Origin: an uncultured Myxococcales bacterium
Lineage (GTDB): Bacteria > Myxococcota > UBA727 > JABDBI01
Direction of reading: 5' to 3'
Length of the DNA stretch: 64,000 nt
Assembly: GCA_964368985.1 (NCBI GenBank)
Contig: CAYJDW010000002.1
Location: 28,171 to 92,170 of the forward strand
Under the pieces are notes generated by a model that was not told where the DNA came from, did no database searches, and saw only the letters and a program-made list of their open reading frames with translations. The position numbers were made by a program, and so were the translations under genes. Below, one piece after another: positions 35,744 to 38,359 of the stretch. Every line of letters begins with the position of its first letter. Within the stretch, counting starts at the first letter, position 1.

Positions 35744-38359
35744 ATGCATTGTTGTCGCATATCCATATGTCTTATTTTACTGCTAGCTTTAGGAGCTTGT
35801 GGTGGAAAGACGCCATCAGCTGAGCCTAAAAAGCGGCCTGCTCCCACGACTCTGGAAAAGAAAGTAACCACGAAGATAATAAATGCAGAGGAAGCTCCAG
35901 GATTAGATGAAGCGCTGCCAGCAGCTGAAATAGCGCCTCCGCCTTTGGGCGAAGTAGTGCCACCTCCACCGCCACCACCTGGCCCCCCAGTGCCAGTACC
36001 TGTTCCAGTGCCAGTGGTTGAGAACATACTTCATTTTTGTGGTGATGGTGAACGTAACAAAGGTGAGGGATGCGATGACGGCGATAAAGAAAATGGCGAT
36101 GGTTGCTCTTCAAGCTGTGTAGTTGAGCTTTGCGGCGATAATATAACTGCCTCTCCGACCGAAGAATGCGACGATGGAAATACCGCTGGTGGAGATGGTT
36201 GCAGTGCAACTTGTACTCTTGAAAGCTGCGGCGATGGTATTTTGAATGTTGGCGAAGCATGCGACGATGGCAACAATGTTGACGGTGATAATTGCAGTTC
36301 GACCTGTCAACTGGAAGCATGCGGCAATTCGATCCTTAATATCGGTGAAACCTGCGATGATGGCAATACTACTGCCGGTGATGGATGCTCGCCTACCTGC
36401 TTAATCGAACGTTGTGGCAATAGCATTCTTGATGCTGGTGAGCAATGCGATGACGGCGCATTGGGCAGTGTCACTTGCAGCCCACTTTGCCAACTTCGTG
36501 TGTGCGGCAACAGCATTCTCGATCCAGGTGAAACCTGCGATGATGGCAACGTTGTTTCCAACGATGGTTGCAGCGCAACTTGTCTGCTTGAAAGCTGCGG
36601 TGATGGTATCATCCAAACCGATGAAGAATGCGAACCACCAAGCGTTGGTTCATGTACCTTTACCTGTCAATTGGCTGTGTGCGGCGATTCAATCCTCAGC
36701 CCACCAGGTGAACAATGCGAAGACGGCAACGTGATTAGTGGTGATGGTTGTAGCTCCACTTGTACCTTGGAAAACTGTGGTAACGGCATAGTTGAACCAG
36801 GTGAACAATGCGATGATGGCGACGTAATTGCTGGTCCTTTGTGCAGTGCGATTTGTCAAATTCCTACTTGCGGTAATGGTTTCTTAGAAGCACCACCTGA
36901 GCAATGCGAAGATGGAAACGTTGTAAGCGGCGATGGATGCTCGGCAACCTGCCAAAACGAAATCTGCGGTAATAGCATTGTTGATGCTGGTGAGCAATGC
37001 GATGCGGGACCTATGGGTAACCTGCTGTGCAGCCCGCTCTGCCAACTCCGTATTTGCGGTAACGGCATCATCGATCCAGGTGAAGAGTGCGAAGATGGCA
37101 ACATATTGCCAAACGATGGTTGCAGTGCGCTCTGCCAACTTGAATCTTGCGGCGACGGAATCATTCAAACTGGTGAAGCATGCGAACCACCCGGAATCGG
37201 CCTATGTACTCTTACTTGCCAAATAGCAGTGTGCGGTGACAATGTTCTCACTCCACCGGTTGAGCAATGTGAAGATGGAAACGTGATAGCCGGTGACGGT
37301 TGCAGCGCTACTTGCCAGTTGGAAGAATGCGGCGATGGTAATATCGATCCAGGTGAGCAATGCGACGATGGCGACACCGTTGCAGGTCCTCTCTGCAGCG
37401 CTATCTGCCAAATCCCTGCCTGCGGCAATGGTTTCTTGGAACCAGCAGCAGCGATACCTGAAGAATGCGAAGACGGTAATATCATCCCTGGTGATGGCTG
37501 CTCCGCTACCTGCCAAATTGAAGAATGCGGCAACGGCGTAGTAGATGTTGGCGAACTCTGCGACGATGGCAATCTGCTTCCTGGCGATGGTTGCGATCAG
37601 TTCTGCCGAATCGTTATCTGCGGTAACGGTATCGTTGAAGGCAACGAACAATGCGATGATGGCAATATTCTGCCTGGTGATGCGTGCAGCCCAACCTGTA
37701 CTCTCATTGCCATTCCAGAAGATTGTGATGATGGCCTCGACAACGATGGCGATACCCTGATCGACTTAGCAGATCCAGATTGCCATGTGGTTTTCGTGTC
37801 CAGCTTGCAGATGGATGGAAATATTCCAGCCGCCGCAGCCGCCGCATTCCCTGGTGTTTGCTCTGGTACCTTGGCAGGCTTGCAAGCCGCTGATTGTATC
37901 TGCAATCAACTGGCTGCAGCAAGTACGATTCCGCGGGTAAGTTCAGCTGCTGGAAGTTATTTGGCATTCTTGTCAGATGCTACTACCAGTGCTTCAAGCC
38001 GACTCACTTTCGCAGGCCCATACTTGACTCCGAATGGTGTCGTTACAACCGTAGATTTACCTGAACTTATTACCCTTCAGGCCAATCTTTTGTCGCCTAT
38101 TGATAGAGACGAAAACAACAATGCGCTTCCTGTGGGTACCACCACGGTATGGACTGGAACGACCATACTCGGGGGAGTAAATCTCGTAGGTGGATCTTGC
38201 GTCAGCTGGACAACCAATGCTCTTCTTTCCACTGGCGGGATTGGGCTGGTCGGTTTGGGCCTCACCTGGATTGATTCCGGCGTGCCCCTTACTTGCGATG
38301 GCTTAACTTTATTGCCACTCTTGGTAACTCCTCCTCGTATCTATTGCTTTGAGCAATAG
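35744..38359 (+). CDS. Giant secreted lipoprotein built from ~20 tandem Cys-rich repeats (Myxococcus-type CxxCx..CGDG repeat) with a Pro-rich linker
   Basis: Lipobox [23 protein letters not shown] linker is followed by about 30-aa units of the form CG(N/D)G..E.CDDGN...GDGCS..C..E.C repeated from aa 106 to 665. It ends in a Cys-containing domain of unknown function. Confidence 0.7.
36010..37700 (+). repeat. Intragenic tandem DNA repeats (~90-105 bp period) encoding the Cys-rich modules
   Basis: The motifs ggtgaacaatgcgatgatggc and gatggttgcagcgcaacttg recur. The repeats produce many artefactual overlapping ORFs on both strands. Confidence 0.7.

Follow-up and report, generated by a model that had tools for sequence, protein, structure and literature searches.

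A predicted lipoprotein with 18 tandem cysteine-rich modules and a putative endostatin-like domain in an uncultured Myxococcales bacterium

Results

The 64,000-nucleotide stretch of DNA analysed here (hereafter called the window), from an uncultured Myxococcales bacterium, harbours on its forward strand a complete gene of 871 codons plus a stop codon (positions 35744-38359), with a frame that the ORF list shows as open without interruption to 38359. The ATG at 35744 is likely the start codon, because a Shine-Dalgarno-like AGGAGG (35729-35734, forward strand) lies 9 nt 5' of it and because the orthologue in CP060221.1 shares the MHCCR start and has in-frame stops immediately before it. The ENA gene calls also give 871 residues. 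The original prediction had announced a protein of 887 residues, which requires an upstream TTG at 35696; we preferred the ATG over that start, given the spacing of the AGGAGG and the start of the orthologue at the same place.

The predicted gene product has a mass of 86 kDa and is very acidic, with a pI of about 4. Its translation contains 84 Cys residues (9.6%) and not the more than 100 initially claimed: 72 in the repeated modules (4 in each), 3 in the signal peptide, 1 in the lipobox, 2 in a linker and 6 in the C-terminal domain. No identical 871-residue product was found by exact-sequence look-up, and the products of the public assemblies differ from that of the window at three residues. 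Metagenome contigs scanned with the C-terminal (head) domain and with a 40-nt 5' DNA pattern gave no match, and neither did Rfam over the whole window. Overall, the open reading frame, lipobox, proline run, Cys-rich modules and C-terminal domain of the original prediction were recovered, whereas its protein length and its module and Cys counts had to be revised.

The N-terminus corresponds to a lipoprotein signal peptide with a lipobox Cys at position 19 (35744-35800, forward strand), identified by inspection of the translation and comparison with homologues. The lipobox (LALGAC/GG) is of the L-G-A-C type. In the homologues L096 (FMAC/GG), L007 (LLSAC/GK) and P0066 (LTSGC/K), an equivalent Cys is likewise found after the hydrophobic region, and it is also conserved in P0144. 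As its signal peptide ends in a lipobox whose Cys is invariant, the protein is a predicted lipoprotein, as proposed at first. Residues 20-98 (35801-36037, forward strand) constitute a low-complexity tether of ~79 residues, delineated from the translation and by TRF, and they include the polyproline stretch expected ahead of the modules (residues 73-90, 35960-36013, forward strand). At the DNA level, TRF detected a period-6 repeat in the tether, with five copies of CCAGTG at 35987-36016. A proline-rich segment is found in the same position in L096, L007 and P0066.

Eighteen acidic four-Cys modules of the TIGR02232/DUF4215 type occupy residues 99-656 (36038-37711, forward strand), based on hmm profiles, the translation, AlphaFold2 (AF2) models and Foldseek searches. 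The search with the TIGR02232 model ('myxo_disulf_rpt', NCBIfam), which had been recommended to verify the proposed Myxococcus-type repeat, returned 17 stretches with 485.6 bits for a cut-off of 20.8 (E=1.4e-149), and the Pfam DUF4215 profile scored 254.4 bits for a cut-off of 27 (E=5e-77). Both these scores and the tandem four-Cys motif of the family, an acidic CG(D/N)G...E.CDDGN..GDGC...C of ~30 residues with four conserved Cys, place the protein among TIGR02232/DUF4215 proteins. The modules, 18 rather than about 20 as first counted, are 28-35 residues long, and the array has a net charge of -98. Their Cys spacing is C-x10-14-C-x7-10-C-x3-C (offsets of 11-15, 8-11 and 4), with C-x10-C-x10-C-x3-C as the modal form, rather than the CxxC motif described initially. 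This repetition is far above chance. A higher-order duplication is also present: modules 5-10 (copy A, residues 224-407, 36413-36964, forward strand) belong to a DNA repeat with a 552-nt period and 74% identity (family D3), and modules 11-16 (copy B, residues 408-594, 36965-37525, forward strand) were assigned from this DNA repeat and from protein comparison. As proteins, copies A and B are 74% identical, and both are present in the L096 orthologue, indicating that the duplication is older than the species split.

An AF2 model of modules 8-11 had a pLDDT of 86.6 and a pTM of 0.50, so neither the geometry between modules nor the rigidity of the array is fixed by the model. With the whole protein as a single query, a search of the PDB gave a marginal ADAM17 match only, and a profile search was needed: the module profile matched PAPP-A2 (E=5.6e-4), PAPP-A (E=1.7e-3) and ADAM17 (E=0.1). 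Foldseek matches of the modules in the PDB were PAPP-A/PAPP-A2 or ADAM/snake-venom metalloproteinase chains in 24 of 25 cases. The confident ones (probability 0.5-0.93) are local, covering 35-46 columns with 35-44% identity, and those of lower probability are longer and poorer. The published consensus of ADAM Ca2+-site II is XCGN(X)3EXGEXCD (PMC4885070); one of the 18 modules matches it strictly, 13 have the same spacing and O-donor residues, and 17 do so if small insertions are allowed. In sequence and in modelled structure, the module is thus similar to the Ca2+-binding 'shoulder' of ADAM disintegrins and to the human PAPP-A module, and judging from these motifs, the modules probably bind Ca2+.

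The locus had been regarded as prone to length variation and mis-assembly, which our results do not support. On the DNA, TRF detected the hexamer of the proline run and a 9-mer of the GCC type, but no tandem array in the repeat region. The DNA copies of the modules are 60-74% identical, and the longest exact repeat inside the gene is 24 nt. Six independent assemblies (the window and five others, from different samples) have the same gene length of 2616 nt and the same frame, and the syntenic CP060221.1 orthologue, from a different species, has all 18 modules in unchanged order, colinear one by one. The suggested comparison of repeat number, made here across these assemblies and the orthologue, revealed no variation. 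Relative to the CP060221.1 orthologue, the array has a pN of 0.16 and a pS of 0.80, similar to serS (0.14 and 0.80, respectively), values given as separate pN and pS because saturation of synonymous sites (pS about 0.8) makes dN/dS not computable, and Cys residues are kept at 75 of 76 aligned positions. The array is under purifying selection.

Given the repetition visible inside the protein and 12 substitutions clustered within 106 nt (36262-36367, inside modules 3-4) between the window and the other assemblies, one might suspect a collapsed or expanded repeat region or a decaying pseudogene. This is extremely improbable and effectively refuted by the length and frame shared with five other independent assemblies, the shortness of the longest exact repeat, the colinearity of the cross-species orthologue, the low pN relative to pS and the conservation of the Cys residues, as well as by the lack of a paralogous donor for the substitution cluster. 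Intragenic gene conversion was rejected as the source of this cluster, as no paralogous module fits the window variant better. The repeat array is thus evolutionarily stable and represents no assembly hazard.

Downstream of the array, residues 657-680 (37712-37783, forward strand) form a linker with a Cys-bracketed, DxDxDG-type acidic loop, as defined from the sequence and its homologues. No Pfam model matched the linker at threshold. Many large, unrelated proteins contain tandem arrays of its 21-residue DxDxDG motif, and in L007, P0009 and P0066 the linker likewise lies ahead of the endostatin-like domain.

The distinct C-terminal domain mentioned in the original prediction is non-repetitive and covers residues 681-871 (37784-38356, forward strand); profiles, AF2 and Foldseek point to an endostatin-like (DUF1554-type) identity that had been missed. 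The sequence itself has no Pfam Endostatin match, and its DUF1554 score is below the Pfam gathering threshold (17.7-18.5 bits for a cut-off of 27.5, E=0.002-0.003). Of 26 aligned homologues, 21 match DUF1554 and 14 match Endostatin. Profile-level homology extends to 1882 representative proteins with E<=1e-3, and the family profile matches the endostatins (collagen XVIII) of the PDB over the full length (E=9e-15). The AF2 model of the domain (pLDDT 89.6, pTM 0.89) retrieved only endostatins from the PDB with Foldseek, at a probability of 1.0 and TM scores of 0.61-0.74. Four Cys residues invariant in the family alignment (C720, C819, C851 and C868) are all present. We therefore predict that the head has an endostatin-like fold, and because of its score below the cut-off we file it as a divergent relative of DUF1554 rather than a Pfam-defined member. 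With a net charge of -7, 4 Arg and no Lys residues and a pI of 4.1, its composition does not fit the basic heparin/laminin-binding surface of endostatin and of the Leptospira Len proteins.

Labels of the Myxococcota type are carried by 58 of the best 80 genome loci, and the SerRS encoded in the window is closest to those of metagenome-assembled genomes labelled Myxococcales or Myxococcota. Single modules are found in human PAPP-A and PAPP-A2, and a diatom adhesive-trail protein was reported to contain 12 such repeats (bioRxiv 10.1101/2023.03.06.531300). No Bdellovibrionota were present among the top loci. The bias of the repeat towards Myxococcota is thus broadly borne out, but its proposed restriction to Myxococcota, Bdellovibrionota and a few other groups goes too far.

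The lipobox, Pro-rich tether, DUF4215 array, DxDxDG loop and endostatin-like domain are found together in L007 and P0066. P0009 and P0144 combine a lipobox-like signal, DUF4215 modules and an endostatin-like domain with no clear proline run, and the loop is present in P0009. In three Nannocystis genomes, tblastn matches extending to query residue 870-871 suggest the same architecture. In other DUF4215 proteins, too, the array separates an anchor from a globular domain, with the anchor at either end, as in P0239 (beta-helix, array, MYXO-CTERM-like tail) and P0156 (lipobox, array, LTD domain). Many others lack any other Pfam domain. In the closest syntenic orthologue (CP060221.1), the array is intact and the protein ends right after module 18; the head appears to have been lost, next to a transposase gene and an inverted downstream block.

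Discussion

The protein described here is an ordinary member of the myxobacterial cysteine-rich-repeat family, with no new mechanism. Like the TIGR02232/DUF4215 'Myxococcus cysteine-rich repeat' proteins, which are mostly found in Myxococcota and usually coupled to other extracellular domains, it contains four-Cys acidic modules in a long tandem array. Unlike them, it has a lipobox and a proline tether instead of a MYXO-CTERM tail, and an endostatin-like C-terminus. This combination is a minority architecture of the family and is not unique. To our knowledge, the function of none of these proteins has been defined by experiment.

The nearest characterised bacterial relatives of the head are the Leptospira Len adhesins, DUF1554-type endostatin-like outer-surface lipoproteins that bind laminin, fibronectin and factor H (PMC2063517, PMC2387172). 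Both are bacterial lipoproteins with an endostatin-like domain, and homologues of our head match DUF1554 and Endostatin. However, Len proteins lack a DUF4215 stalk, the head of the window protein is under the DUF1554 cut-off, and its host is an environmental, Myxococcota-type bacterium rather than a pathogen. As the head is acidic and devoid of Lys, it would not have a basic heparin-binding character, and the ionic, heparin-competed binding of Len proteins is not simply transferable; it is unlikely that this binding mode and the Len ligands apply to it. The head is predicted to have the same fold as collagen XVIII/XV endostatin (PDB 1koe, 1dy0, 1bnl, 1dy2), with a C-terminal strand motif common to both (IYCFEQ in the head, IVLCIE in endostatin). 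Nevertheless, structure-based identity is only 15-17%, and the head differs by an extra Cys pair (C706, C718), its acidic character without a basic heparin-binding patch and its bacterial context.

The local match of the modules, over about 35-46 residues, is to the disintegrin 'shoulder' (Ds) of ADAM/snake-venom metalloproteinases and to the PAPP-A/PAPP-A2 module, and it includes the spacing of the Ca2+-site II motif of the ADAM Ds (CGN(X)3EXGEXCD). Only this first part of the disintegrin domain is aligned, and the window module has no Da 'arm'; accordingly, Pfam Disintegrin gave no match in the protein at E<=1, and a complete Ds + Da domain was not found. Eighteen copies of the unit would form a stalk here, whereas PAPP-A/PAPP-A2 have a single module.

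In its proposed organization, the protein is reminiscent of Myxococcus xanthus TraA, which has a PA14 head, a Cys-rich repeat 'presentation stalk' and a MYXO-CTERM anchor (PMC3325183, PMC12045341), in that a stalk of disulfide-rich repeats would connect the membrane anchor to a recognition domain at the far end in both. However, the TraA repeats belong to TIGR04201 and not TIGR02232, which led us to reject membership in the TraA family. The polarity is also reversed (N-terminal head and C-terminal anchor in TraA), the head folds differ, and TraA has a TraB partner, whereas no traB-like gene is adjacent to the window gene. The NCBIfam scan of the window protein at E<=1 returned TIGR02232 only, with no TIGR04201 or MYXO-CTERM (TIGR03901), and the Pfam scan returned no PA14. 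Its C-terminus is IYCFEQ and not a hydrophobic, Arg-rich tail.

We consider it reasonably likely that the protein is an outer-membrane or surface lipoprotein that serves as an adhesin or receptor, with an anchor, a proline tether, an acidic stalk and a binding head. Other locations and roles were weighed. Diderm lipoproteins are periplasmic by default, and the N-terminal lipobox is the only sorting signal here, without MYXO-CTERM; an envelope spacer or tether facing the periplasm, where disulfides form, would also be consistent with the proximity of a DsbD-like gene to that of the L007 homologue. We regard this location as quite unlikely, because other DUF4215 arrays carry MYXO-CTERM surface-sorting tags, the characterised endostatin-like lipoproteins (Len) are outer-surface proteins (PMC2063517), and an extended 18-module array with its tether would probably exceed the width of the periplasm.

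Alternatively, the acidic Cys-rich array itself may be the functional part, for instance as part of a matrix or fibre loaded with Ca2+ or as a surface buffer for divalent cations, with the head as an optional accessory. The absence of the head beside an intact array in the CP060221.1 orthologue, in which all 18 modules are strongly constrained, suggests such a function, as do the large negative charge of the array, the 17 putative Ca2+ sites among 18 modules, the many DUF4215 proteins without other Pfam domains and the 12-repeat diatom adhesive-trail protein. However, the transposase and inverted block beside this headless orthologue look more like a recent truncation than a designed form, the head-bearing architecture is found again in distant relatives, and arrays of this family are usually coupled to a distal globular domain, making a self-sufficient array unlikely.

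The surface adhesin or receptor, which retains the disulfide-stabilised stalk of the original prediction as the most plausible reading, could work as follows; we infer its lipidation, surface exposure, Ca2+ binding, rigidity and ligand. After Sec export, Cys19 would be lipidated, as its lipobox indicates, and the ~79-residue tether with its polyproline segment would lead into the array. The 18 small modules, without regular secondary structure, would each contain two disulfides, 36 in total, and probably bind one Ca2+ each in the CG(N/D)xxx(E/D)xxExC(D/E) site, which shares the spacing of ADAM site II. Disulfides and Ca2+ would thus make the array an extended stalk stiffened by oxidation and calcium. 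The Cys-bracketed DxDxDG loop would connect this stalk to the endostatin-like domain, of a C-type-lectin-related fold, which would serve as a ligand-binding head tens of nanometres off the membrane. The protein would most likely serve to attach to, or recognise, an extracellular macromolecule, for instance a polysaccharide or protein of a matrix, or else the surface of another cell.

These analyses are chiefly of use for annotation. They give a 'hypothetical cysteine-rich repeat protein' a testable model with an anchor, a stalk and a head, allow its C-terminal domain, so far unannotated, to be called endostatin-like, and tentatively tie each repeat to a structurally characterised Ca2+ site of ADAM proteins. 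They also indicate that an array that looks highly repetitive as protein can be stable and assembled without risk once its DNA copies have diverged. More speculatively, and with a low probability, proteins with a lipobox, a polyproline tether, iterated Ca2+ modules like the disintegrin shoulder, a DxDxDG loop and an endostatin-like head might form a coherent, so far unnamed adhesin family. The host would belong to a small-genome (about 2.5 Mb), low-GC (about 44%), Myxococcota-labelled lineage found in many metagenome assemblies, and the length of the stalk would set the reach of the head that attaches the cell to prey, host or floc matrix. If so, such bacterial proteins would be a plausible evolutionary reservoir from which the collagen XV/XVIII endostatin domain and the ADAM/PAPP-A module of animals could have been drawn. 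If the protein is indeed an adhesin, it would offer an entry point for studying attachment to substrate or partners in a reduced-genome myxobacterial lineage.

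Gene, product and repeat family

The Cys-rich lipoprotein is encoded by a single long open reading frame (ORF) on the forward strand, ending at position 38359 in the ORF list of the window. The original prediction of an 887-residue product requires an upstream TTG at 35696, whereas the ATG at 35744 yields 871 residues. AGGAGG is found 9 nt before this ATG. CP060221.1 is a 2.5-Mb chromosome carrying the label "MAG: Myxococcales bacterium"; its syntenic orthologue also starts with MHCCR, with in-frame stop codons directly upstream. The product is therefore 871 residues long. It contains 84 Cys residues (9.6%) rather than more than 100, and 18 modules opening with CG[DN] (residues 99-656, positions 36038-37711) instead of about 20. 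Each module comprises 28-35 residues, with four Cys at offsets of 11-15, 8-11 and 4, and not the "CxxC" spacing initially reported. The Pro run ([18 protein letters not shown], residues 73-90) and the distinct, non-repetitive C-terminal part are as described; thus, the observation was real but its counts were inaccurate.

As anticipated, the TIGR02232 profile (NCBIfam "cysteine-rich acidic repeat", myxo_disulf_rpt) matched the protein, at E=1.4e-149 over 17 stretches, and Pfam DUF4215 matched it at E=5e-77. These profile matches place it in a known repeat family, which had been correctly spotted. This family is very large, with >5,700 proteins at E<=1e-20 among 8,000 candidates scored, in which the arrays are combined with varied extracellular domains (PPC, LTD, beta-helix, C-type lectin, subtilase, fibrinogen-C and FG-GAP). 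By label, the best 80 genome loci are of Myxococcota type in 58 cases and unlabelled in 11; the other 11 are assigned to other phyla, several of these MAG labels being doubtful.

Stability of the array

The repeats had been thought prone to length variation and mis-assembly. However, DNA identity between modules is only 60-74%, TRF reported no array for the module region, and the longest exact repeat inside the gene is 24 nt. The locus is present in at least five further independent assemblies, and the gene measures exactly 2616 nt in all five. At a larger scale, modules 5-10 resemble modules 11-16 (74% identity), forming a six-module super-repeat. The CP060221.1 orthologue (locus L096, 14220-16238; 672 residues, 71% identical overall) has the same lipobox and Pro tether and 18 modules in unchanged order, with an equal length pattern except for one module (35 vs 32 residues). 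Corresponding modules are on average 74% identical, versus 47% for non-corresponding ones. In this comparison pN is 0.16 in the array and 0.14 in serS, synonymous sites being saturated (pS ~0.8), and 75 of 76 aligned Cys residues are conserved. The ordered orthology of the modules, a pN far below the saturated pS and the conserved Cys indicate that the array is old, with individually differentiated modules under purifying selection. It is thus no hot spot of slippage or collapse.

Relative to the window, the five other assemblies share one set of 17 substitutions, causing three amino-acid changes. Differences from the other contigs cluster at 35323-35707 (3' end of the RluD-like gene plus the intergenic stretch before the lipoprotein gene) and at 36262-36367 in modules 3-4 (12 substitutions in 106 nt); both look like inter-strain recombination tracts originating from a diverged strain. 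Paralogous donors were also considered for the 106-nt tract, and none accounts for it. Two genes that are intact in the ENA assemblies L086, L087 and L089, nth and that of the second ABC transporter, are each split into two ORFs in the JGI assembly L088 (3300056759); the splits are probably indel errors or a real variant of that contig. The ungapped comparison of L088 with the window is out of register (7018 mismatches).

Genomic context and relatives

The neighbouring genes have housekeeping functions (serS, GST, RluD-like pseudouridine synthase, nth and two SNF transporters), with no obvious partner gene among them in the window. The SerRS of the window shares 81% identity with its CP060221.1 counterpart, the remaining named SerRS matches are from Myxococcota, and the GC content is ~44%. 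Upstream of serS, two ABC transporter genes, of which the first encodes a C39 peptidase domain, precede a gene for a 1012-residue PLD-like protein (24227-31358), a block kept in all related contigs. The pseudouridine synthase gene is overlapped at its start by a small ORF (34089-34502; 131-137 residues) whose product has a hydrophobic N-terminal segment; no Pfam model matches it, and all relatives keep it at the same position.

The CP060221.1 orthologue stops immediately after module 18 and no remnant of the C-terminal domain is detectable downstream. At this locus (L096 14220-18673), the gene lacks linker and head; next to it come two unrelated small ORFs, a DDE transposase gene and an inverted copy of the downstream block (Dus, M50B, SNF), an arrangement that suggests truncation by an IS-associated rearrangement. 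In the more distant relative L100 (12347-13960; SerRS 77%), otherwise syntenic, nth comes right after the RluD-like gene, with no Cys-repeat gene in between. A 965-residue lipoprotein ~35% identical to ours is encoded by MAG_886 (SerRS 84%) on a separate contig; it combines a polyproline tether and 20 modules with the DxDxDG loop and an endostatin-like domain. There (L007 3179-4465, reverse strand), its tail-to-tail neighbour is a DsbD-type transmembrane thiol-disulfide transporter-thioredoxin fusion, which may be relevant to the folding of a protein with ~90 Cys or be coincidental. Among other homologues, P0066 has the complete layout with fewer modules, and P0009 and P0144 have signal, modules and head with no clear Pro tether. 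Module number thus differs between distant members of the family and is constant among close relatives (18).

Module structure and putative calcium sites

A module profile built from four-module windows (alignment A2) matched one module each of human pappalysin-2 (E=5.6e-4) and pappalysin-1 (E=1.7e-3), and, at E=0.1, the beginning of the disintegrin domain of ADAM17. The AlphaFold2 model of modules 8-11, which is devoid of regular secondary structure, is confident at the local level (pLDDT 86.6) and not at the global one (pTM 0.50). In Foldseek searches of the PDB, 24 of its 25 matches were PAPP-A/PAPP-A2 or ADAM/snake-venom metalloproteinase chains. The confident ones (probability 0.5-0.93) are local, spanning 35-46 columns at 35-44% identity (E=0.015-0.3); the others have longer alignments and low probability. 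The "shoulder" segment of ADAMs holds the structural Ca2+-site II, of consensus XCGN(X)3EXGEXCD (PMC4885070), whose spacing is identical in our modules. One module of 18 fits it strictly, 13 with O-donor substitutions and 17 with short insertions. Given this shared spacing and the net charge of the array (-98), each module may reasonably be proposed to bind one Ca2+.

Linker and C-terminal domain

The linker ([24 protein letters not shown], residues 657-680) is a Cys-bracketed DxDxDG-type loop that also forms long tandem arrays in other proteins. The 21-residue motif C-x-D-G-x-D-N-D-x-D-x-x-x-D-x-x-D-P-x-C (37712-37783) occurs in 7-20 tandem copies in many large proteins (P0002, P0005, P0007, P0010-P0015). 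With no Pfam threshold reached and weak MopE or DUF6484 matches only, it appears to be a Ca2+-loop-like repeat that has not been catalogued.

Residues 681-871 have 1,882 homologous representatives at E<=1e-3 in a 1.84-billion-protein library, often with several copies per protein. Alone, the domain scores below threshold against Pfam DUF1554 (17.7-18.5 bits, cut-off 27.5); among 26 aligned homologues, 21 match DUF1554 and 14 Endostatin. With the profile of the family, endostatin structures of collagen XVIII/XV align over the full length (E=9e-15 to 2e-10). The AlphaFold2 model (pLDDT 89.6, pTM 0.89) matches only endostatins in the PDB (probability 1.0, TM 0.61-0.74). Four Cys are invariant in the family alignment, and an additional pair, C706 and C718, marks a sub-group. 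The relatives characterized in bacteria are the leptospiral endostatin-like (Len) lipoproteins of the outer surface, whose ligands include laminin, fibronectin and factor H (PMC2063517, PMC2387172). The domain of our protein is acidic (net -7) and lacks Lys, and therefore binding of polyanion sites in the manner of Len proteins or endostatin should not be assumed.

Proposed organization

In DUF4215 proteins whose anchor can be identified, the array separates it from a globular domain, and both polarities occur. P0239 and P0212 have a MYXO-CTERM-like tail after the array, preceded by a beta-helix in the former and by a region with no Pfam match in the latter; in P0156 and our protein, a lipobox, the array and a C-terminal domain follow one another. 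A similar anchor-stalk-domain logic has been proposed for the Cys-rich stalk (TIGR04201) of Myxococcus xanthus TraA (PMC3325183, PMC12045341), which is unrelated to our array. Based on this recurrent layout, we favour, as fairly probable, a model in which a lipid-anchored stalk, made stiff by disulfides and Ca2+, would present an endostatin-like binding head.

Alternatively, the array itself, which the headless orthologue retains in full, might be the functional element, which we deem unlikely; that the lipoprotein faces the periplasm seems a shade less likely still. An artefact or a pseudogene is hardly credible for a gene of identical length in independent assemblies. For the protein as a whole, a name is now available for the C-terminal domain, and the supposed instability of the repeats is not borne out.
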